Positions 26,182-46,427 of a DNA stretch of 64,000 bases are shown here, piece by piece. The translations under genes were made by a program, and so were the position numbers. Source of the stretch: a virus (Duplodnaviria; Caudoviricetes); IMG/VR virus record IMGVR_UViG_3300028581_000010; one strand, written 5' to 3'. Position 1 is the stretch's first letter, and every line of letters begins with the position of its first letter. Below the pieces are notes generated by a model. That model was not told the origin of the DNA and did not search any database. It worked only from the letters and a program-made list of their open reading frames with translations.

Positions 26182-26688
26182 TTAGCTTCGAGGCCCAAGC
26201 ATCTTATCCATTATAGCGTTTACCTGTTGAATGCGCAGCGATTGCTGAGGAGTTACCTCATTACGAGGCTGATAGTTCTGTACAGTGGCATTCGTCACTG
26301 GCGCGGTGTTGCGACTATAAGCAGACTCCAGTGCTCTGGATGTGCCTGTATGAAGACTGGTGTTTGTGGCACCTGCAGGGCCGCGGGCAGCAGCTAGCGT
26401 CGATGCCCTCGATGGTTGAGTTAGGTTTGCGTTTGTTATGGGAGCCTTGTCAGGGGTGGTGGGTAGCGCAGTCGCGCGGGAAGGATAGTTGCTGGCGGGT
26501 AGGGCAGGCCCGGTGCCAACTGCAATTGTGCCCCCAGCTCCACTCGATCCAGAGGCGGACGTAAACGCCTTGGTGGTGCCAGATATAGGCTTAGGAAGAG
26601 CCGGCGCTGCGGTGGGTGCAACGGGAGACGCTGCTATCTTGGTGAAAGCAACGAACTCGCTTAAAATTTCTCCAGATAGGTGTTTCAC
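26182..26688 (-). CDS. Low-complexity Pro/Ala/Thr-rich protein with conserved 20-aa leader
   Basis: N-terminus MKHLSGEILSEFVAFTKIAA is nearly identical to that of the adjacent paralog. Confidence 0.75.
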   Translation of the reverse strand: MKHLSGEILSEFVAFTKIAASPVAPTAAPALPKPISGTTKAFTSASGSSGAGGTIAVGTGPALPASNYPSRATALPTTPDKAPITNANLTQPSRASTLAAARGPAGATNTSLHTGTSRALESAYSRNTAPVTNATVQNYQPRNEVTPQQSLRIQQVNAIMDKMLGPRS

Positions 26689-26894
26689 AGTTTCAATGGT
26701 TGGCTAGTATTGGTGCCTGGTTTAGGTGTGGCGCCACCTGAAACTATAGGTCTAACGGGTGTGGTGCCAGCAATACTAGGTCTTGGTGCGACGGCGGCGT
26801 TGACTATTGGCGTTGTTATTGCAGGCTGCAGCTGTGCCGAAGCCGACTTAGTGAAGGCAAGGAAGTCGTTTAGTATTTCACCAGAGAGTTTCAT
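26685..26894 (-). CDS. Small Pro/Thr-rich paralog with the same leader
   Basis: N-terminus MKLSGEILNDFLAFTKSAS; ATGA coupling to the next gene. Confidence 0.75.
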   Translation of the reverse strand: MKLSGEILNDFLAFTKSASAQLQPAITTPIVNAAVAPRPSIAGTTPVRPIVSGGATPKPGTNTSQPLKL

Positions 26895-26937
26895 ACCATC
26901 ATTATACGCTATTGCTCAAATACTTCAAACACCAAAA

Positions 26938-26971
26938 ATGAAAAAGGGCCCATTGCTGGACCCTTCTTCAT
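26938..26971 (-). terminator. Intrinsic terminator after the major capsid gene
   Basis: Stem GAAGAAGGGUCCA / UGGGCCCUUUUUC with a GCAA (GNRA) tetraloop, followed by a U-rich tail. Confidence 0.8.
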
Positions 26972-26993
26972 TTATTCTAGCTGTGAGCTAAGA

Positions 26994-27953
26994 TTAACCG
27001 TTGAAGTCAACCTTAACAACACCCTTGACGTTTCCAAGAGCCAGCGACACATTCATGTACTGGAAATACTCGAGGAAGTATGCTTCATTCTTCATGAACA
27101 CCGTTAGCGGGGTCAGCCGATAGTACTTACCTAGGAAGTCTTCCGAAGAAAACAGATAGATAACACCATCAGGAACGAGATCGTGCTTGATCGTGTAGGC
27201 GGGCTTCACACCAAGAAGAGTCTTGGAAGGAAGGCCGTTAACCCACATCTCTTGCGCGAGATCGCCACCAACCTCAGAACGGCTCATTTTAACGAAGTCG
27301 TCCGCGGTTACTGTGTTCATCAGCATCACGCCTTTGCTTTCGCCACCATCGGGCTGTGCAGGGCCAAATGGCACGCGCAGACGTTTGATGACTTTGAAGG
27401 CTTCCGCCACGTTTTCACGTGTGATACCACCAGAGATGGTAACGTTCTGCGGGAGACCTAGCTTGTTAAGCGGGTTAGCTGTGTTGACTGTTCCGATCAC
27501 ACTGTTGATACGCTCCAGGAACCGGGTGTCCAGTTCAGTTGCGATGTCCTTGGTGCTGATTTCGAGCATGATTGCACGAATGTCGTAGTCATAGCCACGT
27601 AGGTAGTCGATGTCCTTGTTGAACTTCGGTGATACGATACGTGTGAAATACGACGGGTAGCGAGTGCCCCCGAACTGCACAGCATCAGGCACCACCCCTA
27701 GCGGGATAGTTACAGCAGGTGCGGTATCAGGTTCGCGGTCATTCCACTTAACCAGCAACTCAGGATCTTCACTCTTGTCGAGGTCGTCGTTAGAGATGTC
27801 GATCGGGGTTAGAATTTTCTCCGCGAAGCTTTCTTCACGAAGTTTGTTACGTGTGAAGCTCTGGGCGGAAACAGCTGCCTGTTTCTCGTTACCGGACTTC
27901 ACCATTTCAACGAATGTGTCGTTGAATACTTTAAGATCAGCGATTTTTTCCAT
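26994..27953 (-). CDS. Major capsid protein (HK97 fold)
   Basis: 319 aa with highly biased codons, its own promoter and terminator. HK97-type pattern (EESFAEKILTP, IVSPKF..D..YL, KDIATELDTRFL, LLGVKPAYTIKHDLVPDGVIY); downstream of protease, scaffold and decoration genes. Confidence 0.85.
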   Translation of the reverse strand: MEKIADLKVFNDTFVEMVKSGNEKQAAVSAQSFTRNKLREESFAEKILTPIDISNDDLDKSEDPELLVKWNDREPDTAPAVTIPLGVVPDAVQFGGTRYPSYFTRIVSPKFNKDIDYLRGYDYDIRAIMLEISTKDIATELDTRFLERINSVIGTVNTANPLNKLGLPQNVTISGGITRENVAEAFKVIKRLRVPFGPAQPDGGESKGVMLMNTVTADDFVKMSRSEVGGDLAQEMWVNGLPSKTLLGVKPAYTIKHDLVPDGVIYLFSSEDFLGKYYRLTPLTVFMKNEAYFLEYFQYMNVSLALGNVKGVVKVDFNG

Positions 27954-27975
27954 AGTATTAGTTTAGTTTCCTAGA

Positions 27976-28437
27976 TTATACGGCAAGTTTAATCGCCACG
28001 AATGTTGCAGTGCCTTGGATCTTAACGCCGCTGATTGTCTCAGCTGCAGGAAGATCACGGGCGCCTACCACTTGACCGATTACGCGGTCGCTGGTCCCTT
28101 TGAGACCGATTAGTCCGTCTGTACGAGCGGACACTTGCGCGCCGACTGCATAGGTGGATGCGTCTCCGTAGAAGTTGGTCGTCTCCACGACGGATGCACC
28201 GTCTAGAAGATATACACCGATTTTACCAGATTCGATAGAGTCTCCATCGGCCTGGTCGTTGATTGCGAAGCCTAGAATTTCGTTTACAGCGTCCGGATCA
28301 GCGGTGCCCTTGAGCACTGTGCCAGCGTCTGTGTAACGAACTACCATGCCCGCTTCGATTGCTTGTCCAGAAACTGCCGCCCCAACGACATTTGTCTGAT
28401 GGAGAGAAAGAGCTGGGCCAGAACGAAAATTGATCAT
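27976..28437 (-). CDS. Capsid decoration / cement protein
   Basis: 153-aa beta-tulip-like pattern (IEAGMVV...LGFAIND...GKIGVY...YAVGAQVSA..DGL) directly upstream of the capsid gene; AAGGA SD. Confidence 0.7.
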   Translation of the reverse strand: MINFRSGPALSLHQTNVVGAAVSGQAIEAGMVVRYTDAGTVLKGTADPDAVNEILGFAINDQADGDSIESGKIGVYLLDGASVVETTNFYGDASTYAVGAQVSARTDGLIGLKGTSDRVIGQVVGARDLPAAETISGVKIQGTATFVAIKLAV

Positions 28438-28551
28438 ATTAGTTTTCCTTTTGTTTTGTTTGGTTTACTTACTTGTTTTGTTTTGCTTCACTGTCTACTC
28501 CACGCTCCGTCCAAGGACACTATGGCAATATATGTGTAAAGGTATAATCCT

Positions 28552-28580
28552 ATATTATTGAAAATCAGCATATTCGTCAA
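28552..28580 (-). promoter_or_regulatory. Promoter TTGACG-N17-TAATAT for the decoration/capsid operon
   Basis: Near-consensus sigma70 boxes, followed by an ~105-nt A/C-rich leader. Confidence 0.7.
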
Positions 28581-28590
28581 CAATATTTTT

Positions 28591-28740
28591 TCACGCACAA
28601 TAAAAAGGTTGAAGTCTCCACCACATAGTTACAGCAGCTGCCCGTTTAGCGGCGTGTTCCTCAGAATGTTTTTTGCCTAGCTTTGCTGCAGCCATCTTTG
28701 CTTTAGACTGGCTTGTGTGTTTATGGATGTTCCTGCGATG
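28591..28740 (-). pseudogene. Relic NUMOD3 DNA-binding repeats of a homing endonuclease
   Basis: Translation HKHTSQSKAKMAAAKLGKKHSEEHAAKRAAAV matches tandem NUMOD3 (H(S/T)EETKAKMS..KKG) repeats; no nuclease domain and no clear start. Confidence 0.55.
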
Positions 28741-28744
28741 CGCT

Positions 28745-29194
28745 TTATTTCTCTTGAGGTGCTGCGCCTCCAAGTAGCTGTGTGCCTTTGAAGCCTGTCT
28801 CTGTAGACTGCAGCTTCTCCGCTAGCAACTTCTTGATGGTTTCCCGCTTACTGTCATGATCCGCAAAGAGCGCGGCAAGAGGTATCTGCCCGCCCACCCA
28901 TCCACCTTTACCAGAGGAACCCTGATGCATTCGGCGACTTAGGCGTGTGCCCAGCTCGGAAAGTGGTCCTTCAACAAAAGGATTCATCCAGTAGTGGCCT
29001 GGGTGGTTCTTTCTGTTATGTACCATTGCCTTGAGTTTAATCTCGTCAGCAGCTGCGTTAGCGGCTTGCTGCAAGCTATAAGGTCCGTCTTCGGCGGAGG
29101 CTTTAATCAACGTAACAGCTTCACCACGGCTGAGACCGTAGGCTGCTGCTTGCTTGATAGCTCCAGTTAGAAATGAGTGTTCGTAGTTATTCAT
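28745..29194 (-). CDS. Putative internal head protein with the shared module
   Basis: Likely start ATG 29194 (MNNYEHSFLTGAIKQAAAYGLSRGEAVTLIKASA). Confidence 0.7.
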   Translation of the reverse strand: MNNYEHSFLTGAIKQAAAYGLSRGEAVTLIKASAEDGPYSLQQAANAAADEIKLKAMVHNRKNHPGHYWMNPFVEGPLSELGTRLSRRMHQGSSGKGGWVGGQIPLAALFADHDSKRETIKKLLAEKLQSTETGFKGTQLLGGAAPQEK

Positions 29195-29588
29195 CGAGTA
29201 GGTTGTAATTGTTGTCATATCCGAACGCGCGCTGCATAACGGGATCGTCAGTAGCGCCTGCCGTCTTAACACGGGATACACGACCGACGTTCACTACGTC
29301 AGCCGCTTTGCAGATCTTCTCAACGACCTTAGCTAGATAAGCAGGGTCCTCGTTAGACTTTTTGATAAATTGTTTCTTCTCGTACGTGTCGCAGATAAAG
29401 TCTGAGTCGTACAGAGCATTAGCAGCCTTTTTGAGCGCTCCGTTAAATCGGTCGGAGCGTTCCTCTAGCTCATTGGTCAGCGAGGCGTTCTTGTCTTCTA
29501 GGGAAGCTACTTTTGCTTCCAAGGCATGAACCTCGTCGACAGACAGCTTAACAAACTCAGCTATTTTTTCCAGGTGTGCCTTTTCCAT
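29187..29588 (-). CDS. Coiled-coil scaffold-like head protein
   Basis: Heptad repeat LEAKVASLEDKNASLTNELEER; several K-x-A motifs; upstream of the capsid genes. Confidence 0.65.
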   Translation of the reverse strand: MEKAHLEKIAEFVKLSVDEVHALEAKVASLEDKNASLTNELEERSDRFNGALKKAANALYDSDFICDTYEKKQFIKKSNEDPAYLAKVVEKICKAADVVNVGRVSRVKTAGATDDPVMQRAFGYDNNYNLLDE

Positions 29589-29730
29589 GAGCTTTGATCT
29601 TATCCAAAGTTGCTAATGTATCTATGTACTCCAAGACTTTAAGCTTTTCTTCTTCTGGAAGAAAAGCCATAGCCTTTAAAGCTTCTTGTTCAACAGAGGA
29701 TTGAACTCCTACCAAACCTTCGGCTTCCAT
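29557..29730 (-). CDS. Small helical hypothetical protein (57 aa, below ORF-track cutoff)
   Basis: Hand translation MEAEGLVGVQSSVEQEALKAMAFLPEEEKLKVLEYIDTLATLDKIKAHGKGTPGKNS; fills the gap between neighbours. Confidence 0.6.
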   Translation of the reverse strand: MEAEGLVGVQSSVEQEALKAMAFLPEEEKLKVLEYIDTLATLDKIKAHGKGTPGKNS

Positions 29731-29738
29731 ACGATTGA

Positions 29739-30662
29739 TTACTCCTGCGGAGTATTCTTTAGACGTTCGATTACCGCGGCGGCAACCGTAGCAGCAAGCT
29801 TCTCTTGAGCTTCTTTGTCAGCAGCTAGCTTCTCAGCGGCCTGCTTCTCATTTTGCTCTTTAACAGAAGCGGCTTCATACTCAGCGAGCGTGTCCCGAAG
29901 GGCTTCATTCTCTGCATATGCTTGCTCATAAGCGGCCTGTTTGACAAGGTTGTCAAAGTAAGCAGCGCCTGCTGCTTCAGCTTGTTTTTCGGAAAGTTCC
30001 GCGGTTGCACCTTTTTCAAGGCGAGCAGCTGCGTCAGCGATCAGAACATCAAAGTCCCGACGGCCAGCTTCTTTCATGAGTTCAGACTCAGAGGGAGCGG
30101 TTTCTGCTGCAACTTTTAGAAGAGCGGCGCAGAACTGACGGCCGAGTTCATAAGAGGCAACTTTAGCAGCCATGTCACGAACTTCATTGTCTTCAGCTTT
30201 CTTAGCAGAAGCAACGGGCTTAGACTTGTCGCTGGAAGGTTTCTGCTCGTGGGCTTGAGGAGAGAGCTTCTCAGGCTTTACAGCATTTTTGTCAACCTTC
30301 TCGTTCTCGTCTTTGATGGACTCTGGGTTGGTATCTTTTCCTGGAACGCCTGTAACGGAGTCCTGGACTTCGGCCTGCTTGCGGATAATCTCCATGATCT
30401 CTGCGCCGAGTTCGGCAGCAGTCTTAGGAGACGCAACGGGTTCAGAAGCGTCGTCAGAACCTTTCTGAGAATATCCTTGTGGGTTGTTCTCAGGCTTTAC
30501 AGCGTTCTTGTTAGTTGTTTCGTGCTCGTCCTTAATAGACTCCGGTTTCGTATCTTCTCCGGGAACTCCGGTGATAGTCTTCTGGGCCTCTTCGGCAGCT
30601 TGTTTGGTAACTATTTGATGCAGTTGGTTTAAAACCTCTGCGTGCTTGCTTAAACGTGCCAT
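29739..30662 (-). CDS. Scaffold-like head protein with an internal tandem repeat
   Basis: Likely start ATG 30662 (MARLSKHAE). Two ~74-aa repeats (TGVPG.DT.PESIKDE...KNAVKPE), C-terminal coiled coil, more than 10 K-x-A motifs, strong codon bias. Confidence 0.7.
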   Translation of the reverse strand: MARLSKHAEVLNQLHQIVTKQAAEEAQKTITGVPGEDTKPESIKDEHETTNKNAVKPENNPQGYSQKGSDDASEPVASPKTAAELGAEIMEIIRKQAEVQDSVTGVPGKDTNPESIKDENEKVDKNAVKPEKLSPQAHEQKPSSDKSKPVASAKKAEDNEVRDMAAKVASYELGRQFCAALLKVAAETAPSESELMKEAGRRDFDVLIADAAARLEKGATAELSEKQAEAAGAAYFDNLVKQAAYEQAYAENEALRDTLAEYEAASVKEQNEKQAAEKLAADKEAQEKLAATVAAAVIERLKNTPQE

Positions 30663-30685
30663 AATATTATTTGTTGTTTGTTGTT

Positions 30686-31303
30686 TTATACTAGTTGATT
30701 TTTGTCCTGAGCGCAAGTAAATTTGCGGCTTTTTACTGACTTTTTCATATCTTCTCCAACCTTACTCAAGTTGTCTTTCTCCCACAGTGGGCGTAAATTG
30801 GTTAGCGCCCAGCCGCGTTTGAACTCTGTGTCGTCATGACTTTTATAACTGAATGAACCAAGCGGTTCGATATGGTCCACCACCCAGCCACCTTTGCCAT
30901 AATTCTCCCAAGTCATCCCATCAGCAAATTTACTTTCTAAGTGCCGTCTTAGGTCTTCTACAGTGTAGCCAACTAGTCCTTCCCAGCTGCGCCCACCTTT
31001 TCGAAGTTCGTTAGCCCGTAGATCGCGTGCCACTGCGCACCGGATGTTATTATTCAACCGAAGCTTGACGTCGGCCTGTAGGCGCTCACGGCTGCGATCG
31101 CGATGATACGGGCGCATTTCAACCTTGTGGGCTTTAAGCCAAGTAGAAGATCTCAAATAGCTCTCCTCTTTGTGCCCATGATACCAACGTTTATTGTCAG
31201 CCGTATTACAGTCCTTGCAAGAGCTGCGCAGCCCATCCTTAGTAACAGCTCTGTAAAAGGCGTGAGTCGCTTTCAACATGTTGCACCTGCTACAAAGTTT
31301 CAT
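30686..31303 (-). CDS. HNH homing endonuclease with N-terminal zinc finger
   Basis: CSRC...CKDC zinc finger; LESKFADGMTWENYG..WVVDHIEP...TNLRPLWEKDNLSK HNH motif. Confidence 0.88.
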   Translation of the reverse strand: MKLCSRCNMLKATHAFYRAVTKDGLRSSCKDCNTADNKRWYHGHKEESYLRSSTWLKAHKVEMRPYHRDRSRERLQADVKLRLNNNIRCAVARDLRANELRKGGRSWEGLVGYTVEDLRRHLESKFADGMTWENYGKGGWVVDHIEPLGSFSYKSHDDTEFKRGWALTNLRPLWEKDNLSKVGEDMKKSVKSRKFTCAQDKNQLV

Positions 31304-31324
31304 AAAACAAAATTAACGGACAAA

Positions 31325-32731
31325 TTATGCTGCTTGTTGATGGTCATGTCCACCACTCAACCCCATGGCAAGAGCACCTGCTCCTAGTGCGCCTGCTCCT
31401 GCGCCAATGCCAAAAGCGGCACCTGGATGCTCACTACCGAACCCCATCGTAGCATCATACCCACCGGAGAGTTTCTGCTTCACAAGATCCCAGAGACCGG
31501 GGTCTGATTCAACCGCAGCTTTTGCGTCTGGGGGCAGTTTCGATTTGAGCGCTGTATCCGCCGGGGAATCCGGCTTGCGGGGTTGGCGAGGCTTGCGTAC
31601 CTTTGGAGCTGCAACCGTCGGAGGCACAACCGGGGCAGCTGGGGCAGTGAGGACATCCTGCGCAGCATTTAGTGTTTGAGAGGTCGGCGAGGGGCCTGCA
31701 AAGGCCTTTGGCTTCGCCCCTGCTGGACGCTTAGCGGGTAGCACCGAGCGCCCGCTACTCACTGTAGCTTTTGGTGCTCCAGTCAAAACTTGCTGCATGC
31801 CCTTTCCTAGCCCGTCGAAGCCGGCTGCGTTCTTCTCCAGCTCTTCATAAACGAGCTCAAAAGCTGTCTTGTCGTCGAGACCATACTCACGAGCGCGCTC
31901 AACGACACCCTCGAAGTAAGCAGCTGTCTTTTCGTCGACCTCTGTAGAGGCCGCTTGTTTAGTCTGTGTTGTGTCGACAACGTAAGAAGGGTCTGACAGT
32001 GTGTTGATGGTAGTCACCAACGCGTTGTCGTACATATCAACAGCTTCTTTAACATTTACACCGTGCTCAACAGCACGAGATAAAAATCCTTCCACATATT
32101 CTGCGGATTTAACATAATTCAAAGCACTGGTCTTTGCTGCAAGCTGTGCTGCGGGGTCTTCCTCTGGAGGAAGCTCTGCGCCTGCGGCTGCTTCTGGTGG
32201 AAGTCCGGCAGCTGCCTCTGGAGGCATTCCAGCGCCTTCATCACCATCGGGTTCGCCTGCGGGAAGCGAGGCGTCCGGATTCTGTTGCAAATGATCAGCA
32301 ATAGCCTGAGCTAGTTGATGTAGTTCTGGGTCCTCTTGTCCTTCGGCTTCAGGGGCGCCACTTTGGGCTCCACCAATATCACCAGCTAGCTCGGAAGCAA
32401 GCTGCTCGAGTTCCTCTGGAGAAAGTTGTGCTAAGAGTTGATCGATATCACCATGCCCGCCTTCTTCCCCACCACCAAGGCCTTCAAGGGCTTCGGCTGG
32501 GTTTGGCTGTGCACCGGCTGCCTCAGGAGGCATTGCTGGGCCTGCGGCTGCTTCTTCAAGACCTGCGCCCTGCGGGAGAGCGTTCGGGTCTTCTTGCGGA
32601 GGAGCGCCTGCGGCCATAGCAGCCATAGCGGCTGGGTCAGCTGCCTTTTTTAGCAAATATTGAATCTGTTCGTCAGAAAGACCGTTTGCCTGTGCAGCCT
32701 TGATGAAACCATTAGTGAAATTGTCGTTCAT
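31325..32731 (-). CDS. Putative internal head protein (acidic Pro/Ala-rich, three shared modules, C-terminal glycine zipper)
   Basis: FTNGFIKAAQANGL, YVEGFLSRAVEHGV and YFEGVVERAREYGL modules; C-terminal GAAFGIGAGAGALGAGALAMG. Confidence 0.75.
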   Translation of the reverse strand: MNDNFTNGFIKAAQANGLSDEQIQYLLKKAADPAAMAAMAAGAPPQEDPNALPQGAGLEEAAAGPAMPPEAAGAQPNPAEALEGLGGGEEGGHGDIDQLLAQLSPEELEQLASELAGDIGGAQSGAPEAEGQEDPELHQLAQAIADHLQQNPDASLPAGEPDGDEGAGMPPEAAAGLPPEAAAGAELPPEEDPAAQLAAKTSALNYVKSAEYVEGFLSRAVEHGVNVKEAVDMYDNALVTTINTLSDPSYVVDTTQTKQAASTEVDEKTAAYFEGVVERAREYGLDDKTAFELVYEELEKNAAGFDGLGKGMQQVLTGAPKATVSSGRSVLPAKRPAGAKPKAFAGPSPTSQTLNAAQDVLTAPAAPVVPPTVAAPKVRKPRQPRKPDSPADTALKSKLPPDAKAAVESDPGLWDLVKQKLSGGYDATMGFGSEHPGAAFGIGAGAGALGAGALAMGLSGGHDHQQAA

Positions 32732-32791
32732 TGTTTTATGTTATTGTTGTTTTATGATAGCCTTACTGGAGCTTTTTTTCAACCAGATTTT

Positions 32792-34219
32792 TTACCTATT
32801 TTGAAGCAAAGCATTGAGCATGACTTCATTTGTAAGTTTCCCATGATCTTCCATGTATTGTAAAGCCGCGATTTTATATTTCGCGTACTCCTCCGCCAGT
32901 TCAACTACAGCAGCTTCCTTGGAGATTTCCTCCGAGTCAGATGCCTTGAGTTTACCTGGGGCTTTTCTGATTATGGTTATCTTCATGATACGCCCTTGGA
33001 CGGGTTGTTCCTCCAGAGAGTGTCCTTCAAACAGACCACCTATCAAAGATCTAAGTGCCTTAGGCAACATGTCGATACCTGAGGGCTCATATTTCTCACT
33101 GTTGACACACTCTCCGCAGCAACCTGCGTCAGAAGCAATGTCGTTAAAAATCTTGGGCAGCCGAGCCTTCATACGTTTCGTATGGTTGCCTAGCGTTGAG
33201 GCTTTCTCGCCAAAGAGATAGCTCATGAAGTCCTCGGGTGAGAAGACGATGCCTTTGTCCGCCAGCGCGCGTAGTAGTTTGGACGGTTCGTACTTGCGTA
33301 GAGTGTCCATGACATCGGCGGGTATGCCGTCTGCCTGGTTCAGCTTGGATTTGTGCTCGGAAATGTACTTGTCCTCGCTTGTCTCATGTATGCCCTTGGC
33401 AATACCATCGAGACGTTTCTCCAGCTTGGCGAGCTTGTGTATAAGACTCCGTTTAAAGGAGGCTTGTTTAGAAATTGTTAGAAGCTCATCGGCTGGAGGT
33501 ACGAAGCCGGTATAGATCTGCATATAGTCAGATCCAAGCTTGGGCACGTATGCGGATGCCATCTTTAGAGACATGCCTACGCGGTCTGCAGGACGCCCTA
33601 CAATAGACAACTCGAACCAGCGCGGCTTGATGTTATCCATACCGCACATCTCACCTACCTTGTTGATCTCTCCGAGTTCGCTGGGAACGTGCTCGCAGCG
33701 AGTCTTGTCATCATAAGCTTTGTGCTTACACCAGGTGCAAACATCGTAAGCTACCTTGGCAGCCATGCTTACGTTAATCTGCTTACCCTCGGCGATCTTC
33801 TGAATCTCCTCAGCGCACTTATCATTGTCCAGGCCTACGATGAGCTCAATACGCTTCATCTTTTTGTTGTAGGCCGCGGCCTTGATGTTTCCGTACTTAG
33901 GGTCTGTGGGCTTATTCTTGTGGTGACGATTCAGTGCACGGCCATCATACTTACCAGCAGCGCTTTTCTTACCAGAGTTAACAAAGGTTTTATAGTGCTC
34001 CAAGCACTCAGCTTCCTTGAATAGGTCGCCGTTTCGGTTTTGGCCTGTTCCCTCATAGGCAGCAAGCGCGATGGCATGTATGTCTGTCTGGCCGGCTGTT
34101 TTCTCAAAGCGCAACTCGTCAGACATGCTTGTCTTCTTCTGCAAATCACGCAAATCCGTAGCAAGCTTTATAGGCTCTTCGTTTAATGCGAGATCGTCTG
34201 TCGAGCTGAACTTAATCAC
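32792..34219 (-). CDS. Prohead maturation protease (HK97/assemblin-like clan) with Zn-finger insert and C-terminal extension
   Basis: NRNGD, H99/H100, VS151M and FELSIVGRPAD motifs; CTWC...CEH insert; position upstream of scaffold and capsid genes. Confidence 0.85.
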   Translation of the reverse strand: MIKFSSTDDLALNEEPIKLATDLRDLQKKTSMSDELRFEKTAGQTDIHAIALAAYEGTGQNRNGDLFKEAECLEHYKTFVNSGKKSAAGKYDGRALNRHHKNKPTDPKYGNIKAAAYNKKMKRIELIVGLDNDKCAEEIQKIAEGKQINVSMAAKVAYDVCTWCKHKAYDDKTRCEHVPSELGEINKVGEMCGMDNIKPRWFELSIVGRPADRVGMSLKMASAYVPKLGSDYMQIYTGFVPPADELLTISKQASFKRSLIHKLAKLEKRLDGIAKGIHETSEDKYISEHKSKLNQADGIPADVMDTLRKYEPSKLLRALADKGIVFSPEDFMSYLFGEKASTLGNHTKRMKARLPKIFNDIASDAGCCGECVNSEKYEPSGIDMLPKALRSLIGGLFEGHSLEEQPVQGRIMKITIIRKAPGKLKASDSEEISKEAAVVELAEEYAKYKIAALQYMEDHGKLTNEVMLNALLQNR

Positions 34220-34221
34220 AA

Positions 34222-35556: not shown

Positions 35557-35561
35557 AAAAA

Positions 35562-36125
35562 TTAAGAGTAAAGCATTTCCTGCTCGACACGATTGCCCTG
35601 CAGCAGATCGCCCATATTTTGAGGTGAGTTGAGCTTTTTGATCGAACGCGTGCGCTCGTAGTCCTTCTTAGCTGCAGGTAGAGAAGATAGAATACCTGCG
35701 AGCACAGCAGCGCTGACACCCATACCAGTAGGAAGGTGTGTCTTAAACTTAGGGTGGATATTCAACAAAGGTGTGTGCTTTAATACATACCCTGATGCCG
35801 CCCCGGCACCTCCACCAATAAGGGCGCCTTTAGTTCCAGCTCCCAACCCTGCAAGAATACCTTCGAGCTCTGGAATCTTATCCAACGACTCGTCTCTACG
35901 TTGCAGAAGATCTGCGCGGTACCGCGTGGTGTCTTCTTGTGAGTTAGATCCATACGCTGGGTCAGAGCCTTGGTCTCGCAGCGCTGCCCGAATATGAGCC
36001 ATGTCGATAGGGCTGATTGCTTGGTCGCTAGCCATTGCTGCCTTGAACAACTCTGTTGCTTCTTGTCTGGTTAGCCCTGCAGCAGCTGCTGCTTTTATGA
36101 ATCCCTTGATGCTTTGCTTGTTCAT
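35562..36125 (-). CDS. Glycine-zipper protein with the shared N-terminal module
   Basis: IKGFIKAAAAAGLTRQEATELFKAAM leader; GLGAGTKGALIGGGAGAASG zipper. Confidence 0.75.
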   Translation of the reverse strand: MNKQSIKGFIKAAAAAGLTRQEATELFKAAMASDQAISPIDMAHIRAALRDQGSDPAYGSNSQEDTTRYRADLLQRRDESLDKIPELEGILAGLGAGTKGALIGGGAGAASGYVLKHTPLLNIHPKFKTHLPTGMGVSAAVLAGILSSLPAAKKDYERTRSIKKLNSPQNMGDLLQGNRVEQEMLYS

Positions 36126-36141: not shown

Positions 36142-36474
36142 TTACTGTCCAGTTACTCTCTCTAATCCTGCCTGTATAGGGATAGCTCCAGCCATGTCTA
36201 AGGCCTGTGTACCCAACCCCATCGTATCCTTGGCGGCAATGCGTGCGCCAACTCGCCCGGCACCAAGTATGCCGTTCGCCAAAGCACCTGTGCCTTTCTT
36301 ACCTGCCCAGCCCATGGCGGCTTGCGTGGCTTGGCGCCGAAGCAGCGAGGCTAGAGCAAAAGAACCTATGCTGGTTGCTATTGGCATCAAAAAAGACTGC
36401 TTTGTAAGCCCAAGCTCTTCTGCACGCTTATCAGCGCCACGTAAAAAAGCTTCGCTATACTCTTGCTGGGTCAT
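36142..36474 (-). CDS. Small Gly/Ala-rich protein with the shared N-terminal module
   Basis: YSEAFLRGADKRAEELGLTKQS leader followed by hydrophobic Gly/Ala segments. Confidence 0.7.
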   Translation of the reverse strand: MTQQEYSEAFLRGADKRAEELGLTKQSFLMPIATSIGSFALASLLRRQATQAAMGWAGKKGTGALANGILGAGRVGARIAAKDTMGLGTQALDMAGAIPIQAGLERVTGQ

Positions 36475-36848: not shown

Positions 36849-36853
36849 CTTGA

Positions 36854-38455
36854 TTAAATTTTAAATGTATCTGTCTTGCCGGACATGAAGGCCTGTGAAC
36901 CGATGCGATTCTTCATCATGTCGGTATCTAGCTTTGTCATCAAGTCGGCGTCGTACTTACTTAGAGCCTGAGAGGCTACCATACCGCGAAGCTCAGCGCG
37001 TACGATTTCCTTTTCCTTGGAGAGCTGCGGAGCAAGCCGTAGCAATTGCTCGTACGCTCTGGCTACCTTGGCTGGGTTAATCTTAGACAAGATGGGGTCC
37101 GTTAGAAGCAATTCCTGTAGAATGAGCTTACGTTCCATATTATCTAATGTGTTATTTACTTTGCCCTGCGCGGTGTTATCTCCGACGCTTGTACCAAAGT
37201 GGTTCTTAAGTGTTGTGTCAGCATGGCCAGATAGAAAGCTGTCCAACCCGTGCCCCAGAGTGTCTAGAGTCTCGGTTATAAACCCTTTCTTAGCTAGCTC
37301 TGCTTTTTTTTTAATCTCCGCAACGACTGGGTCGTTCTCCTCAGCCATCACCATTCTACCAGGAGCCTGCTGCATCGTAAGTGGGTTTAAACCATGCTGC
37401 TCCATCAGGTCATCTGGTGTCATCTGGCTCGGTCCGGGGGCAGGGGAGGGAGTCGGAAGTGGAAATCCAGGGCCCGCTGGGCGAATTGGAGGTGGAATAA
37501 CTTGCTGAACAGATTGTCCTGGCTGCACCGGAGGCACCACAGGCGGTGGTGTTGGTGTTGGTGTTGCTACAGGCGGCATCATTGGTTGCCCTGCTTCTTT
37601 ACGCAAAGCGCCTACAGCGTGACGGATGTCCTGCACGTAGGCTCTTTCAAAATCCAACGACTCGCTGGCTTCTTTAGCTAGTGTGTTGTTCTCGATGTAT
37701 GCCGCAGCGGCTTTCATGAAATGATCGAACATTCCAAGCTCGACGCTCGGCTCAAACATAATATAGCCGGCGTCACGATGACCGCGCTCTTCCTCGAGCC
37801 CTGCGGTCTTATAGAGCAGGTCTAGATAAGGTACGGCTTGTTCTCCATGCTTGGAAAAAGCCTGCGACTCAAGCTCATGAAATGGTGTGCGGTACCCTTC
37901 GTCTCTGCGGAAGTGGTCTGCCAGCTTAGAAAAGACCGAGTTAAACTCGAACTCAGCAGAAGCCTGCTTTGTCTGAGCCACGTCCAGATCGCGCTCTAGG
38001 CGGCTGATATACTTGGCTGTCTTGTCGAAGAGTCCACCAAGCGAGGTAGCGTAGGAGTCGTTCGTCTCTGTTGCTCCGGCGATCTGCAGATAAGCCTGTT
38101 TGTAGACAGGGTTCGACTGCATTCTGCGGAAGTTAAAAACTGGGTCGTTAGTCACTCCATCGGAGAAGTGCTCGGAAATATACTCGGAAGCTGTCTTCTC
38201 GTTAGAGGTGAAGCTGTCCTTGGCCACCTTCTCGATATCGGCGATAGGAAAGTCACTGGAACGATCCTCTGCAGTCTTGAAGTGGTTATAGTGTAGAGCC
38301 ACGTTAAGGGCCTCACCAACGCGGTGAATGTAGTTGGGGTTCAGGTCATAAGACGCTGCAACCTTACTCAGGGCGTCTGTGGGTGTCCCGCCAGAGTTGA
38401 CGATGTTGACAGCCTCATTTAACGCCTGTTTTATTAAGATATTCGGTTCTTCCAT
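36854..38455 (-). CDS. Putative internal head protein, K-x-A-rich, with Pro-rich linker
   Basis: FKTAE, EKTASE, DKTAK, TKQAS and RKEAG motifs; PPVATPTPTPPPVVPP linker. Confidence 0.7.
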   Translation of the reverse strand: MEEPNILIKQALNEAVNIVNSGGTPTDALSKVAASYDLNPNYIHRVGEALNVALHYNHFKTAEDRSSDFPIADIEKVAKDSFTSNEKTASEYISEHFSDGVTNDPVFNFRRMQSNPVYKQAYLQIAGATETNDSYATSLGGLFDKTAKYISRLERDLDVAQTKQASAEFEFNSVFSKLADHFRRDEGYRTPFHELESQAFSKHGEQAVPYLDLLYKTAGLEEERGHRDAGYIMFEPSVELGMFDHFMKAAAAYIENNTLAKEASESLDFERAYVQDIRHAVGALRKEAGQPMMPPVATPTPTPPPVVPPVQPGQSVQQVIPPPIRPAGPGFPLPTPSPAPGPSQMTPDDLMEQHGLNPLTMQQAPGRMVMAEENDPVVAEIKKKAELAKKGFITETLDTLGHGLDSFLSGHADTTLKNHFGTSVGDNTAQGKVNNTLDNMERKLILQELLLTDPILSKINPAKVARAYEQLLRLAPQLSKEKEIVRAELRGMVASQALSKYDADLMTKLDTDMMKNRIGSQAFMSGKTDTFKI

Positions 38456-39693: not shown

Positions 39694-39698
39694 AAAAG

Positions 39699-40634: not shown

Positions 40635-40650
40635 GAATGCGTACAGTTCA

Positions 40651-42846
40651 TTAAACTGTCATCGCATCTTCGTCAGACATGTTAATGGAAAGCTCCGGTG
40701 AACGACGTTTGAGGAAGATGACCAGGTCCCCGATGTTTTTGAATACGCTGGTAACAAGCTCGACCAGTTCTGGAAGGTCGCTTCTACCATACATTTCTTT
40801 GAACTTGTCTGTTTCCCAGTGCAAGAGGAATAGAATGCGGCCGAGGCGGTCCATAGCTTCGATCATGGATGGCAGGTACTCTGTCACCTTGTCCGAAACA
40901 GATACATACTTGGCAAGCGTCGAGATCATATGCGTGTCAAAGATCTCTTTCTGTCCGCTCTGGGCCATCGAAACGGCTTGGCTGACATACTTTGGATCGA
41001 TGCCTTTGATCTCTGGCATTGTACCGAGACCCATCTGAGTTGGGTTACCAGCATAGGCGCCATCAGGCGGAAGCATGTTCTCTTGGCCGACGCCACTGTA
41101 GGTAGGTTGGCCTAGTTCGTTGACGGTGGCTTGCTCTTCAAATGGCTGTGGATATGTGTCTCCGAGATAAGCCATCTTGATGTAACCTTCGACGCTCTTA
41201 CCAGTGGCAAGGCGGTCGACCAGGTCAGAACCAAGCTTCTCATCAAGCCCATATTCCATAGTCATGGCGATCTTGGCCTCGACAGGGCTTTCGTATTTCT
41301 TCTTAGCGCCTGCAATGTTTACAAAGTAGTCGCTACCGTTAGTCTTGAGAGACATTGGGAAAATGCTCTTGGCAGTCAGCACATTATGGACCGCGTACAC
41401 AGGGCCTGGTTCGCCTTTTTGATAGTGCTCCTTGGCCTCTTTACGCCGTTTACTAAAATCCTCGGAAGAACTTCCAGTTAGCTCATCTGTGCCTGGACCG
41501 AATGTAACCTTCAGCAGTTTGTAGCCAGCCGGCACATAGAGAAATTCATCTTTATGTTCCAACCGCCCACCAACACGCTTGGTCATAACCATCATAATGT
41601 CTTTTAGTTTCTTAGGATGGTTGTAGAAGTTACCGCGCGGTAAAGAATGTGCGCTTCCTGGGCGGTCTCCGCCGTGACATAGAGCGTCACATGAATAGTC
41701 GTGAGATGTGTATGGCTCAACAGCGATACGCCGTACGCCATTTTCATCCTTAAAGTTGGCTGTGATGCGAAATGCCTGTGTAGCCTTAAGTTCTTCGTTA
41801 ATAAGAACATAGACGTTGTCGTAGCCGGGCTTTCCTTCAGCAGGCTCAACCATCATCTTATGCACTTCGCTATAGTCGCGCACCTTGATCTGATCTTTGA
41901 CGAACACCTTAGTGGCGTCTTTCAGATAAGCCGTGCCCTTCGAACCAGAGTCGAGGTCGATGACAAGGCTGTCATCTGTGGCGAAGTTCTGCTGTAGCTG
42001 CTCAGGGCGCACCAGAACAAGACCGTAGCGTAGGCCGCCGACCGTGGTTACATAGGAGTAGAAGCCGGACTCAGTCGGGTTTGTGAACTTGTTCATGAAG
42101 GTCACTTCTCCAAACGTGGACTTCTTGTCCTCCGGGCGTTTGTCTACGATAGCGTAGCCCTTGGTTAGTAAATCTGTTTTCTTAGGGTCAGGAAGCTTCT
42201 TAGCTTTCTCCTTGTCCTTCGGATAGACGACGTCGACGTCGCCACCTTTACGGTATTTCTTACCGTCGTCGAGCTTGATAGCTTTTGCTATCTTCTCCAG
42301 CGGATACATCTTGATGACTGCCTCACAAAATGAAGCGTCCTTCTCAAGCAGGTCCGCGAATGCTGTCTTTGTCTTGTCATCCGATTCTTCAACATAATCT
42401 ATAACTGAAGCCATTGTGTACTTGCCCGTGCGGGGAGGTACAGTCATTTGGCGATAGTCTCCCTGTGGTAGCTCACGCATGATGTGCGTACGGTCCTCGG
42501 TAGAGGGCTGTCCAGCGCCAAGCATGTCGTCCTTTAGGAACATCTCAGCAAAGTCTTCGGTCAGCGGAAAGAACTGCTCCGTGTTCTTACTGTAGAGCAA
42601 GTCCAGAGGTTTTACCTTACCACCAATGAAGAAGGCAGGCACATATAGAATCTGTCCCGTGCTGGAGCGAAAACCGAATACTCCAAGGCCCTTGGTGTTA
42701 TCCTCGCTTTTCTTAACTAGCTCGAAGCCAATTAGAAATGGCAGAAGATTTTTCAAGGAGTCCTGCAGGCGATCATACGCTAGCTGGAAAAAAGCTCCTT
42801 CAATGGAGTCGTCGTTAGCACGTTTTGTGGAATTATATTTTGCCAT
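40651..42846 (-). CDS. Large putative head structural/core protein
   Basis: 731-aa ORF with its own promoter; K-x-A motifs (STKRAN, YIKMAY); located in the head cluster. Confidence 0.6.
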   Translation of the reverse strand: MAKYNSTKRANDDSIEGAFFQLAYDRLQDSLKNLLPFLIGFELVKKSEDNTKGLGVFGFRSSTGQILYVPAFFIGGKVKPLDLLYSKNTEQFFPLTEDFAEMFLKDDMLGAGQPSTEDRTHIMRELPQGDYRQMTVPPRTGKYTMASVIDYVEESDDKTKTAFADLLEKDASFCEAVIKMYPLEKIAKAIKLDDGKKYRKGGDVDVVYPKDKEKAKKLPDPKKTDLLTKGYAIVDKRPEDKKSTFGEVTFMNKFTNPTESGFYSYVTTVGGLRYGLVLVRPEQLQQNFATDDSLVIDLDSGSKGTAYLKDATKVFVKDQIKVRDYSEVHKMMVEPAEGKPGYDNVYVLINEELKATQAFRITANFKDENGVRRIAVEPYTSHDYSCDALCHGGDRPGSAHSLPRGNFYNHPKKLKDIMMVMTKRVGGRLEHKDEFLYVPAGYKLLKVTFGPGTDELTGSSSEDFSKRRKEAKEHYQKGEPGPVYAVHNVLTAKSIFPMSLKTNGSDYFVNIAGAKKKYESPVEAKIAMTMEYGLDEKLGSDLVDRLATGKSVEGYIKMAYLGDTYPQPFEEQATVNELGQPTYSGVGQENMLPPDGAYAGNPTQMGLGTMPEIKGIDPKYVSQAVSMAQSGQKEIFDTHMISTLAKYVSVSDKVTEYLPSMIEAMDRLGRILFLLHWETDKFKEMYGRSDLPELVELVTSVFKNIGDLVIFLKRRSPELSINMSDEDAMTV

Positions 42847-42868
42847 GGCTGAAAATTAGTTTAATACA

Positions 42869-42897
42869 AGTTTACCGGTTCCTCTTGCTTTTTGCAA
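42869..42897 (-). promoter_or_regulatory. Promoter TTGCAA-N17-TAAACT
   Basis: Read directly; AACCGG immediately precedes the -10 box. Confidence 0.7.
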
Positions 42898-42907
42898 GAA
42901 GAACAGC

Positions 42908-43189
42908 TTAAGCACCTTCCTGGATGCGGACTACTTTATCGCCAGTGCTGCCATGAATACCCAAGATGGCGTTATTGCCCTCTTCTGTATCCTCGGTGCT
43001 GCGAAGTTCGAGGGCCACACCGGCCTTAAGTCTAAACCCATTGTTGGCGGTTAAAGTGGTGGTGCTGCCGTCAAAGCAAAGAAACATATCTACGTCAGAG
43101 TCGTTTTGGATCAAAATCCACTTACGAGTAGTCTTGTCTACTTTTTCAGCAATAGTTGTTACAGATGATTTTACGTTTACTGTGCGCAT
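42908..43189 (-). CDS. Small beta-rich protein (possible decoration protein)
   Basis: 93 aa, RKWILIQNDSDVDMFLCF...NGFRLKAG pattern common in phage structural proteins. Confidence 0.6.
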   Translation of the reverse strand: MRTVNVKSSVTTIAEKVDKTTRKWILIQNDSDVDMFLCFDGSTTTLTANNGFRLKAGVALELRSTEDTEEGNNAILGIHGSTGDKVVRIQEGA

Positions 43190-43231
43190 AGTTAAATGAT
43201 AATATGTTCTGGAGGTTGCGTCAATGTTTGC

Positions 43232-45085
43232 TTAGTCCTTGAGGCCGAAGCCGACTCCGAATGCCAGTCCTGGGACAGGACTCGGTCCCTTGAGGTCGGA
43301 GTGCCCGCCCTTGTTAACAATGTTGACGAATCTCTTCGCCAAGTTAGTAGAGTTAAGCACATGCATGAAATCCTCGGTATGCTCGGGAACGTCGAGCAAG
43401 CGAACCATGTGTGGCTCGAAGTTGGGTTTCTCGTCGTTTACGAGAATGGAGTCCACCTTATGCTCGGCTAGATGCTTGATTATACTAGAGTTTACTCTTG
43501 TTCCTATAGTGTAGTGCAATACCGGGCGCTCGATAAATTTGCCATAGGCCCTATCCGGGCGCATCTCCTTGGAGTCTTTGCGCGGCTCATATCCTTTTTC
43601 TAAAGCAGAGTAGGAAACGATCTGGTCTGGCAGATAGTCACCTAGGCCATTAGGGTCTGTGATTTTAACGTGGTCGATAGCCGAGCGGGCGATGAGCTCG
43701 AAGTTACGTCTATTGACAAACAGGTTACCGTCGTCGAAGGCTTTCTTCATCGCCTCCATGTAGTACTTTCTACCCTCACCTATACCACGATGAGAGACTA
43801 CTTCACTCGGATCGACGAGCCCTGTGCTTAGCTCCTGTCCTTCCTCGACGGTCTCGCCTTCACGGACCGTAGGTTCTTGGCCAACACCAACATAGTATTC
43901 TTCATCACCTACGTGAATAAAGTGACCGCCTGCGGCAGATGGTTGCACCTGGTGCACAATACCATCCTTATGAGCTAGAGGAGCTCTACCAAGAAATGTC
44001 TTTGGAATGTTAGAGAGCTGGTTAATCATCTTGAAACCAGACACACCGCCCAGCGATGTAGCTGCACCTCCGCCGTGTCTCATCTTCATGGCGTACTCGG
44101 TGAGGGGCTCCGCAACAGCGGTACCTGCGACGAGGCCAATATAGCTGTCCATAGCAGCCAATCCCTTCTCTCTTCTACCTACGCATAGCTGGCACACGGC
44201 ACCGAAGTGCTTATGCTTAGCAGACTCACAGGTCATAGGAGAACGGACCAATACTGTTTTGTGCCCGGCATCTTTCAGCTCTTTTAGTAAAGCAGCTGTT
44301 ACTTCGTTGTTTTTATTGTGTTTACCTATAGCTTTCGCCAGGAAGCACCCAACGGAGTCCTTGTCGTCTGTAGAGTATGCTATGCCGCGGTCGGTACCAC
44401 AGTCATGCTCCTCTACCTTCAAATTCATTAGCGCTCTAGAAAACTGCTTGGAGGCGTAGCCGCCGTCGGCAACACCGATCTTCTTAACAACCTCACCAGC
44501 ACGAGTACCGAAGGAGGTTACCAGATACTCTGGAAGAGATAGCCCTTCTGCGAAGGAGCTCTTAATAGGAATGTCCATGCGGGGCGAGCCATCTGCGTCG
44601 ACGACTATACCCTGAGTTGCTATAGTGGAACGGTACTGCGCTGGAGAACCGCGCGAGCCAGCTAGAATAATCTTGGCTAGCGACTTGTTTGTCTTCAACC
44701 CCTCAGAGAGAAGGTCCTTATCCAGCTTAGACATCAGCCCGTTATACTTATCAAAGATCTTCTGATTCTTAACGTTGCGCGCATCCTTGGAGGCCTCGAC
44801 CGTGTCTTTGTAGTCCTCGAACTCCTTGTAGATCTTGTTCTTGTCGATAGGAGAGATAAGATCCTTTAAACTAATAGATGTACCCTGACGGGTAGCAACC
44901 TCGAAGCCGAGGCGTGTGAGATCGGAAACTACTCTGTTGTATTCCTCTGGAGATGTTTTTGCCAGCTCCTCAAAGATCTTCGCCAGGCCTTTCTTGTCCA
45001 GGACCTGCTCGTCGATTATCTTATGTAGATTAGCGGGTGTAAAAAACTTTAGAAGAATCTTACCGACCGTTGTTACCTCTGCCAT
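43232..45085 (-). CDS. rpoC: RNA polymerase beta' C-terminal half (bridge helix, trigger loop, Zn site II)
   Basis: TTVGK start; AGSRGSPAQ = SGARGSAAQ; PIKSSFAEGL = PITANFREGL; ADGGYASKQF = ANSGYLTRRL; HDCGT, SPMTC, VCQLC; AEPLTEYAMKMRHGGG = GEPGTQLTMRTFHIGG. Confidence 0.93.
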   Translation of the reverse strand: MAEVTTVGKILLKFFTPANLHKIIDEQVLDKKGLAKIFEELAKTSPEEYNRVVSDLTRLGFEVATRQGTSISLKDLISPIDKNKIYKEFEDYKDTVEASKDARNVKNQKIFDKYNGLMSKLDKDLLSEGLKTNKSLAKIILAGSRGSPAQYRSTIATQGIVVDADGSPRMDIPIKSSFAEGLSLPEYLVTSFGTRAGEVVKKIGVADGGYASKQFSRALMNLKVEEHDCGTDRGIAYSTDDKDSVGCFLAKAIGKHNKNNEVTAALLKELKDAGHKTVLVRSPMTCESAKHKHFGAVCQLCVGRREKGLAAMDSYIGLVAGTAVAEPLTEYAMKMRHGGGAATSLGGVSGFKMINQLSNIPKTFLGRAPLAHKDGIVHQVQPSAAGGHFIHVGDEEYYVGVGQEPTVREGETVEEGQELSTGLVDPSEVVSHRGIGEGRKYYMEAMKKAFDDGNLFVNRRNFELIARSAIDHVKITDPNGLGDYLPDQIVSYSALEKGYEPRKDSKEMRPDRAYGKFIERPVLHYTIGTRVNSSIIKHLAEHKVDSILVNDEKPNFEPHMVRLLDVPEHTEDFMHVLNSTNLAKRFVNIVNKGGHSDLKGPSPVPGLAFGVGFGLKD

Positions 45086-45489
45086 TTTGTTTTGTTCAAG
45101 TTGCCCACCAATACGTCGTAAAGGCTGGCTTTCTTCTGAGCTTGCTGTGGACCGGTTACTTTAGTCGTTGTACTTGCCGAGGAGAAGGGCCCGTCAATCT
45201 TAGCCTGTTCCTCTGCCTCGTCTTCCTGGTTCATGCGCGCGAGATCCTTGAAGGAGTTGTCCATCAACTTTCCCTCGTAGTTTTCGTTGCCTTCGTCTCC
45301 CTCGGTGTTGGAGGTAGTGATATCTGCGTCATCAAGAGTGGTGTCGGCGTTTTGCGCTACTTCCTCACCCTCTGCAAGCTTGTCCTTGATGTAGCATACG
45401 TAATCATAGTTGGCATCCTTCGGATTGAAGGAGTCCAAATACGCAGCTAGCTTTTCAAGCCATGGCTTTTCCATATTATTTGGTTCCAT
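45073..45489 (-). CDS. Acidic hypothetical protein with K-x-A motifs
   Basis: LEKLAAY and QKKASLY motifs; lies between the two polymerase genes. Confidence 0.7.
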   Translation of the reverse strand: MEPNNMEKPWLEKLAAYLDSFNPKDANYDYVCYIKDKLAEGEEVAQNADTTLDDADITTSNTEGDEGNENYEGKLMDNSFKDLARMNQEDEAEEQAKIDGPFSSASTTTKVTGPQQAQKKASLYDVLVGNLNKTKWQR

Positions 45490-45543
45490 AATTTACAGTA
45501 ACATCTGACGGATCACGTGGAAGAGCAGACATACCTGTTATTC

Positions 45544-46224
45544 TTACATGGAAGGTTGCGCTGTCGCGGGAGGCTTACCATCGGACATCGCCTGCGGATA
45601 TATGCCGCCACTCATCATGCCTTGCTCCTGTGCCTGTTGCTGTTGCTGCGCGGCAGCCTCGTCCATTTTCTGCTTATTCTGCAGTTGCTGCATCTTGGCG
45701 TTATGCTGGTGGGCCATTTGCTTAACCTTCATTAAAGAAGCAGACGCTGACCCTTTAGAGATTAGGTCCAACAACTCCCTAACAGTTAGCGTGACTTGCG
45801 TATTATCTAACTGATTCTCAGCGTTGACGTTGCCGTCAGTCGCCTCCTGAGGAGGCGCGCTAGGATCGCTTCCTTGCTGGGCTGGGTCTCCACCCTGGGC
45901 CGCTGGGTCGTCCCCACCAATACCTAGCTGCTGGGCAATCTGCTCGAGCTGCGGCTGTTGTTGTTCCGGAGGAAGCTGCATGATCTGCTGGAGAGCAGGC
46001 ATAATCTGTTGCTGTGCCTCTGGAGGCATCTGCTGAACAGCTTGTTCGATTTGGGCCATCAGTGGATTTTCTCCACCTGGAGCACCACCCTGAGGTGGCT
46101 GATCACCAGGCGCTCCGCCTTGAGGTGCTGCGCCTTGAGATGGGTCTTGCTGGACTTGCGGGTTGGGTATGAAGGCCCTCTTGACAATGCTATCGTAATT
46201 CTCTATGAGTTCTGCTATTTTCAT
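45544..46224 (-). CDS. Gln/Pro/Gly-rich low-complexity protein with K-x-A leader
   Basis: MKIAE..VKRAFIP leader, PQGGAP repeats and one folded motif (VTLTVRELLDLISKG). Confidence 0.7.
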   Translation of the reverse strand: MKIAELIENYDSIVKRAFIPNPQVQQDPSQGAAPQGGAPGDQPPQGGAPGGENPLMAQIEQAVQQMPPEAQQQIMPALQQIMQLPPEQQQPQLEQIAQQLGIGGDDPAAQGGDPAQQGSDPSAPPQEATDGNVNAENQLDNTQVTLTVRELLDLISKGSASASLMKVKQMAHQHNAKMQQLQNKQKMDEAAAQQQQQAQEQGMMSGGIYPQAMSDGKPPATAQPSM

Positions 46225-46427
46225 TGGTTCTCTCCGTTTTCTAAATGAATGATTTCTTCCACACGCTGCTTAAGCTCTTTTTTGATGTTTACTAGCTTTC
46301 CTTGTTCTCTTGTGTGTTGCAATGGGTTATTTCCACTCTCTATCTCTAGGAGTGTATCCAGTATACCGGATAGCTCTGCAGCTTTTTCCTGCAAAGTTAA
46401 AGTTTTCCATACGTTTTGATCAAGCAT
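46221..46427 (-). CDS. Small helical hypothetical protein
   Basis: 68-aa ORF, ATGA coupled to the next gene. Confidence 0.6.
   Translation of the reverse strand: MLDQNVWKTLTLQEKAAELSGILDTLLEIESGNNPLQHTREQGKLVNIKKELKQRVEEIIHLENGENQ

Follow-up and report, generated by a model that had tools for sequence, protein, structure and literature searches.

A probable K-x-A cleavage code of the prohead protease in an uncultured large myophage and its relatives

The DNA analysed here is a 64,000-nt stretch (the window) of the uncultured virus record IMGVR_UViG_3300028581_000010 (Duplodnaviria; Caudoviricetes). It is part of a large-myophage genome, with tail and baseplate genes on the minus strand at about 2–26 kb followed by a head gene cluster at 26–46 kb. 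We examined a short pattern, K-x-A, that recurs in the head proteins and very likely marks the sites at which the phage's own prohead protease recognises and cuts them. Features are on the minus strand unless stated otherwise, an arrow marks a cut or predicted cut, and residues are numbered outwards from it (P1, P2 and so on before the bond, P1' after it). The protease gene (475 aa, 32792–34219) stands before the scaffold and capsid genes. Between protease and capsid lie a 468-aa low-complexity core protein (31325–32731), a scaffold-like acidic protein (29739–30662, 307 aa from the ATG picked by the gene caller, or 325 aa when read as 29739–30716), a small coiled-coil-like core protein (29187–29588) and a probable decoration or cement protein (27976–28437; weak Pfam match to Phage_cement_2, E 0.014). 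The major capsid protein, of the HK97 fold and 319 aa long, is encoded at 26994–27953. Elsewhere in the cluster are a conserved 533-aa head protein (36854–38455) and a conserved 731-aa protein (40651–42846), homologous to gp220 and gp218 of Salmonella phage Arash, and a 138-aa acidic open reading frame (ORF) with an N-terminal LEKLA site (45073–45489). None of the motif-rich proteins is named by Pfam.

The protease consists of an N-terminal propeptide, a domain at about residues 44–218 (33566–34090) and a C-terminal extension. It matches the head maturation protease family PHROG 18299 (E 1e-7), gp19 of phage G (E 1e-9) and gp97 of cluster C mycobacteriophages, and its family comprises 2,396 clusters at 50% identity. 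The structural model superimposes on T4 gp21 (5JBL; Z 11.0, root-mean-square deviation 2.9, 129 residues aligned) and on the VZV protease (1VZV; Z 10.1), the best unrelated fold scoring 6.4; a Foldseek search with the model returned the same fold matches at weak E-values. His100 and Ser151 are invariant in 27 and 35 homologues (Ser151 in 70/70), and residue 203 is Asp or Glu in 70/70, being Glu here and Asp in most homologues. By conservation, His100 (33920–33922), Ser151 (33767–33769) and Glu203 (33611–33613) are the predicted catalytic triad. We rejected D212 as its third member: it sits in a P-A-D-R loop (residues 210–213), whereas D/E203 fits the strand position. Of the marks of a clan SH prohead protease, it has a beta-barrel fold in the model, a conserved His, Ser and third acidic residue, and a place in the head module; for activity on head proteins, the processing of the phage G capsid described below is an indirect sign. 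Among the acidic residues, the invariant E56, D65, E125 and D159 are candidate S3 partners for a basic P3. A conserved Cys161/Cys164/Cys175-His177 insert (about 33689–33739), probably a zinc site, separates the nucleophile from the third triad residue; we know of no comparable zinc-type Cys/His insert in T4 gp21 or the assemblins.

K-x-A brackets this domain across the family. Among divergent representatives obtained by clustering at 50% identity, it precedes the domain at a short distance in 105/108 and stands at or next to the C-flank position in 95/102, followed in both places mostly by Ser or Ala. The C-flank copy of the window, K219-M220-A221↓S (33557–33565), is the predicted release site and immediately follows the domain's last strand (residues 216–220 in the model). 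At the family's N-flank position, at least 90% of homologues have Ala at 30, and K-x-A is found in 52/54 and 15/15; the window holds a degenerate copy, K28-K29-T30↓S (34130–34138), in which K28 is the invariant residue. The preliminary description, made from the window sequence, had placed the domain between EKTA42↓G and LKMA221↓S. Both are there, and the second is the conserved flank. The first, K40-T41-A42↓G (34094–34102), is a candidate N-terminal trimming site found in 4/4 close relatives and not family-wide; it is not the conserved N-flank site, which here reads LQKKT30↓S, and may be a substitute for it within the close clade.

The capsid protein carries one invariant site of this kind near its N-terminus. 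Foldseek relates the protein to HK97-fold capsids (E 2e-9) and hhalign to gp27 of phage G (probability 98, E 1.6e-13); a sequence search of the PDB gave no match. The predicted maturation site is K24-Q25-A26↓A (27876–27884), the EKQA26↓A pointed out in the preliminary description. K24 and A26 are invariant in 28 capsid proteins, most of which share only 24–31% identity with the window capsid, and the residue between them varies.

Phage G (Bacillus/Lysinibacillus), whose gp19 and gp27 are homologous to the window protease and capsid, provides the experimental anchor. Its gp27 has 282 residues and a mature form of 255 residues and 28.2 kDa, as determined by N-terminal sequencing (Hua et al. 2017, PMC5646251 Table 1). 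Residues 28–282 compute to 28.17 kDa, so that 27 residues are removed and the cut falls at RVALA27↓Q. A profile alignment puts Ala27 on Ala26 of the window capsid, and a gap-free alignment matches Ala27 with the K-x-A of the other subgroup and with the K-V-A of Eggerthella phage LE2-3. On the profile alignment, the bond that corresponds to the predicted site of the window capsid is cleaved in phage G, on the C-terminal side of Ala. Furthermore, gp19 and other head proteins of phage G are rich in K-x-A, which is the top motif of its head genes. We found no paper naming a cleavage motif for phage G, and the multi-omics papers on Myrna and phage G contain no cleavage data.

Within the window, the pattern is specific to head genes. 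Against 2000 composition shuffles, the head-cluster ORFs contain 91 K-x-A where 45.1±6.0 are expected, and among all X-n-Y spaced residue pairs in them K-x-A ranks top (z 6.9); the most enriched pairs include none of the form x-x-E. Tail and baseplate ORFs (37 vs 38) and the remaining ORFs of the window (22 vs 23.5) are at chance in the same comparison of head, tail and non-virion genes, which the preliminary description had called for. The clear excess is confined to five ORFs: the protease (13 vs 5.1), the three scaffold- or core-like proteins between protease and capsid (10 vs 4.4 for 31325–32731, 17 vs 5.9 for 29739–30716 and 7 vs 1.9 for 29187–29588) and the 533-aa protein (15 vs 3.3). 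The excess is weak to moderate in the 731-aa protein (8 vs 4.3) and weak in the 138-aa ORF (4 vs 1.2, p 0.02). It is lacking in the 444-, 386- and 311-aa ORFs of the cluster, in the RNA polymerase ORF 43232–45085 and in the decoration protein, which serves as an internal negative control; nor is it seen in the capsid protein (3 vs 1.4), yet that protein has its one invariant site. The earlier statement that most head-cluster ORFs carry the motif was therefore too broad, although every site quoted for it is present in head ORFs: EKTA↓S is residues 86–89 of 36854–38455, VKSA↓E lies in 31325–32731, and TKQA↓A, EKQA↓A and MKEA↓G are in the scaffold-like 29739–30716, for which more than ten sites had correctly been announced. 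Since the codons of these sites vary synonymously and the other reading frames show no excess, the signal acts at the protein level.

The same picture holds in about 30 related phage loci, which include cultured Arash, D69 and phage G. Here the proteases contain 220 K-x-A (98 expected), the genes from protease to decoration protein 504 (189 expected), the 533-aa family 228 (68 expected) and the 731-aa family 86 (43 expected); the 533-aa family is the most consistently enriched of all. Orthologues of the scaffold-like protein have 14–16 each where about 5 are expected, and the small core protein is enriched as well. There is no excess in the genes downstream of the capsid (133 vs 146) or in the decoration-protein family (22 vs 17), and in the enriched genes K-x-S, K-x-G, K-x-x-A, A-x-K and R-x-A show nothing comparable. 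JA11 and GR11A, more distant relatives by their capsids, lack a K-x-A excess. Individual sites are also retained: 45/82 K-x-A sites (55%) are conserved across all four close relatives, as compared with 25/117 occurrences of control patterns (21%). The nearest cultured relatives, Arash and Vibrio phages D69, D148 and D181, keep the gene order and the motif-rich genes and have LVKEA↓G or LTKEA↓G at the capsid site, at only 26–29% identity. Products of the Arash genes are detected in virions (PMC10585845); the proteome gives implausible coverage values (100% from 2 peptides), with no peptide list in the part considered, and so cannot show processing. As side observations, Arash gp242 (174466–175335), encoded far from the head cluster and itself detected in virions, has 8 five-residue motif sites where 1.0 is expected, and a D69 ORF of similar size (L007:36257-37108) has 10 K-x-A against 2.3.

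Pooling 906 sites gave the consensus [LMIF]-x-K-x-A↓[ESA], with Leu, Met, Ile or Phe at P5 in about 60%, Glu or Val at P4, a free P2 and Glu, Ser or Ala at P1'. Mycobacteriophage relatives also use R-x-A, P3 often being Arg. Since phage G gp27 has Ala at P3 and mycobacteriophages have R-x-A, P3 is best read as a basic preference, with Lys preferred and not required. Separately, cluster C mycobacteriophage capsids (L051, L008) read Q-R-L-G↓Q at the homologous site, which suggests Arg at P3 and Gly at P1. The P3-Lys/P1-Ala code put forward in the preliminary description is thus supported by the head-specific enrichment and by the phage G cut after the homologous Ala27 (PMC5646251). It is refined in that a hydrophobic P5 is preferred, the sites belong to five ORFs plus single conserved positions, and P3-Lys is not absolute.

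Altogether, the motif is enriched, specific to certain genes and conserved across the lineage, the protease has the gp21/assemblin fold, and a cut after the homologous Ala is seen in a relative, phage G. We consider it very likely that this protease of the phage recognises [L/M/I/F]-x-K-x-A↓[E/S/A] and cuts it after Ala. In the mechanism that we propose, the protease would be co-assembled in the prohead and would trim its own domain at both ends, the capsid protein would lose its first 26 residues, scaffold and core proteins would be chopped at many sites so that fragments can leave, and short leaders would be clipped from cargo proteins loaded into the head. Not all matches need be cut; exposure probably decides. 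The scheme is that of T4 and SPN3US (PMC9026906, PMC5694885, PMC10052503), with a new code that comes nearer to the Ala↓Ser sites of assemblin (PMC4498786).

Several observations weigh against cleavage at K-x-A. At RVALA↓Q of phage G, the one site known from experiment, P3 is Ala rather than Lys; the window capsid and that of Arash have one extra residue just after the site, an indel relative to gp27; and PDB entry 6WKK lists gp27 from residue 1. The capsid site is predicted to lie at the start of a helix (residues 23–37), and some other K-x-A sites likewise fall in modelled helices. The window phage has lost the Ala of the family N-flank site. Finally, K-x-A is 3.3-fold enriched inside the protease core in the nearer homologues, at helix positions that are restricted to clades and not family-wide. 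The preliminary description had warned of chance K-x-A inside the domain; such sites do exist, and as the nearer clade has more of them than expected at random, noise is not a sufficient explanation. Self-inactivation is one possible role for them; alternatively, they may stay uncut.

These same features bear on a different view of the motif, in which it would serve chiefly for docking or capsid targeting, as an amphipathic helical epitope for a core or shell component, while most copies stay uncut. Many copies do fall within predicted helices or belong to shared helical leaders, K-x-A is found inside the protease core, and in T4 the determinants of targeting and of cutting share the same 10 residues (PMC9026906). 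We regard this view as unlikely: the fixed positions at both edges of the domain and the strong preference for Ser or Ala after the Ala fit a scissile bond, and phage G cleaves its capsid protein at the homologous position, although the two roles are compatible. The bond could also be misplaced, with the protease cutting after Lys (K↓x-A). HK97 protease cuts at K↓S, the capsid and flank sites keep their Lys just as strictly as their Ala, and the C-flank site lies at the end of the last strand. A cut after Lys is nevertheless very improbable, as the residue after Lys is free while that after Ala is restricted to Ser, Ala or Glu, and phage G gp27, which has no Lys at the site, is cut after Ala27. 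Least credible of all is that K-x-A simply reflects a helical composition rich in Lys and Ala, or a repeat at the DNA level. The enriched proteins are indeed rich in Lys, Ala and Glu and helical; helical tail proteins have no excess, however, and we rejected both a composition artefact and a DNA repeat on the basis of composition-matched shuffles, mirrored controls, codon diversity and off-frame counts.

The proposed cleavage after Ala by the phage's own protease has parallels in, and differences from, the known systems. T4 gp21 has the same fold and, like the system in the window, a two-residue P3/P1 code, many sites in scaffold and core proteins, one capsid site and short shared leaders that end in a site (PMC9026906). 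The T4 code is L/I-x-E; in the code predicted here, P1 is Ala instead of Glu, P3 is Lys or Arg instead of Leu or Ile, and a hydrophobic P5 is preferred. Unlike gp21, the window protease has the Cys/His insert and a long C-terminal extension. Proteases of the phiKZ type (phiKZ gp175, SPN3US gp245) also come from large phages with their own RNA polymerase, with long multi-site propeptides on head proteins and C-terminal self-cleavage (PMC5694885, PMC10052503). They cut after Glu, at S/A-x-E and A-x-E, whereas the predicted cut here is after Ala; the L/I/S/A-x-E rule of gp21 and phiKZ-type enzymes does not describe the window, where no x-x-E pair ranks among the most enriched in head ORFs and the capsid cut known from phage G at the homologous position is after Ala. 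About 80% of SPN3US head proteins are uncut (PMC5694885, PMC10052503), which argues that presence of a motif does not equal cleavage. Assemblin (PrV pUL26N; YLQA↓T, VQA↓S) is fused, as here, to a C-terminal extension, with a site directly behind the protease domain, and it cuts after Ala with a small P1', in agreement with the predicted motif and the phage G site (PMC4498786). It has a Ser-His-His triad, a hydrophobic P3 and an oxyanion loop in which two Arg follow each other (PMC4498786); the window protease has Asp/Glu at the third position (D/E203), a predicted Lys at P3, and R209 and R213, which are not consecutive.

K-x-A also ends short N-terminal leaders. It occurs within the first 30 residues of 23/61 window ORFs (10.0±2.8 expected). 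Five otherwise dissimilar ORFs share a family a leader, F-x-x-G-F-x-K-x-A-x-x-x-G-L: the 187-aa ORF 35562–36125 (leader 36024–36125), ORF 28745–29194 (29087–29194), the 110-aa ORF 36142–36474 (36397–36474), the 468-aa core protein (32630–32731) and, outside the range of the preliminary description, the 87-aa ORF 20636–20899 (20810–20899). Their alignment is the seed A4 only, as an iterated leader hidden Markov model drifted to generic K-x-A helices. A family b leader ends in F-T-K-I-A on the 168-aa ORF 26182–26688 (26632–26688) and, nearly identical, in F-T-K-S-A on the adjacent 69-aa ORF 26685–26894 (26841–26894). The bodies of the leader-bearing ORFs are not similar to one another. In one close relative, the family a leader is found on seven ORFs, three of them consecutive at a different locus. 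In another, eight ORFs begin with M-K-Y-F-[EK]-K-x-A in varied codons (control matches, 0); an SNF2-type helicase of this relative (L010:5928-7283) begins with a ninth variant, M-R-Y-F-E-K-N-A. Arash has few shared N-terminal leaders; its head-cluster helicase gp217, abundant in virions, is without one.

In T4, a leader of 10 residues, the capsid-targeting sequence, directs proteins into the prohead, where gp21 removes it (PMC9026906). Its layout, a short shared leader on unrelated proteins that ends in a protease site, is also that of the window, and we read the leaders as candidate capsid-loading tags. Unlike those of T4, they differ by lineage. By this analogy the leader-bearing proteins are probably loaded into the head.

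Further possible cargo lies outside the range of the preliminary description. A 595-aa Gly/Ala-rich protein (53203–54990, plus strand) has 6 of its 7 K-x-A in the first 140 residues (0.8 expected) and 1 in the rest (4.1 expected); from its sequence, this site-rich part is a candidate long propeptide on an ejection-type protein. The plus-strand cluster 53203–58467 that it opens encodes Gly/Ala-rich proteins with hydrophobic segments, several with an N-terminal K-x-A, in an order kept in relative G001, and its products are candidate ejection or core proteins.

Processing by prohead proteases is known as such; the proposed basic-P3/Ala-P1 specificity would add a variant to it. The large-phage head proteases of T4, phiKZ, 201phi2-1 and SPN3US all cut after Glu (PMC9026906, PMC5694885, PMC10052503). 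An enzyme of a phage that cuts after Ala with a basic P3 would sit between these and the herpesvirus assemblins, and the code explains the published and unremarked N-terminus of the phage G capsid. A partial literature search, which leaves absence unproven, found no description of the K-x-A specificity or of the leaders. We lean slightly towards the broader proposal that a large lineage, to which Arash, phage G and cluster C mycobacteriophages belong and whose proteases form about 2,400 clusters at 50% identity, relies on a basic-P3/Ala-P1 code not described before, together with lineage-specific leaders ending in K-x-A, which would act as portable capsid-loading tags and deliver varied cargo to the host, such as the SNF2 helicase and Gly/Ala-rich ejection-type proteins. 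As a sequence tag, the motif predicts head core and cargo proteins among the hypothetical proteins of the lineage, and their mature ends.

The window further encodes a multi-subunit RNA polymerase, with Rpb1/Rpb2 domains in 43232–45085 and 46457–50536. The mReC phages are delimited as caudoviruses with beta and beta' subunits, which the window has, and by a capsid matching PF07068/VOG11186 and a polymerase within the mReC clade (PMC7481178); the window capsid has no Pfam match. The polymerase is split in an unusual way. ORF 46457–50536 fuses the C-terminal part of beta to the N-terminal part of beta', the remainder of beta' being 43232–45085, and the N-terminal part of beta lies 8 kb away on the opposite strand (58728–59390, plus), homologous to the N-terminus of Arash beta gp206 (E 2e-18). 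ORF 46457–50536 also contains an intein-like insert (about 48470–49560), which starts near CLTTDHEV, ends in HWTGN and has a weak LAGLIDADG match; the counterpart in a close relative is 995 aa long, compared with 1359 here. Many homologues of the protease (P0006–P0147) likewise have intein-like inserts that end just before conserved Cys or Ser residues; their positions are three residues past the catalytic Ser, inside the Cys insert or ahead of an N-R-N motif, and some homologues carry two. Finally, an endonuclease VII/HNH-like ORF (30686–31303) is inserted between two head genes of the window and is absent from the related loci L001–L005.

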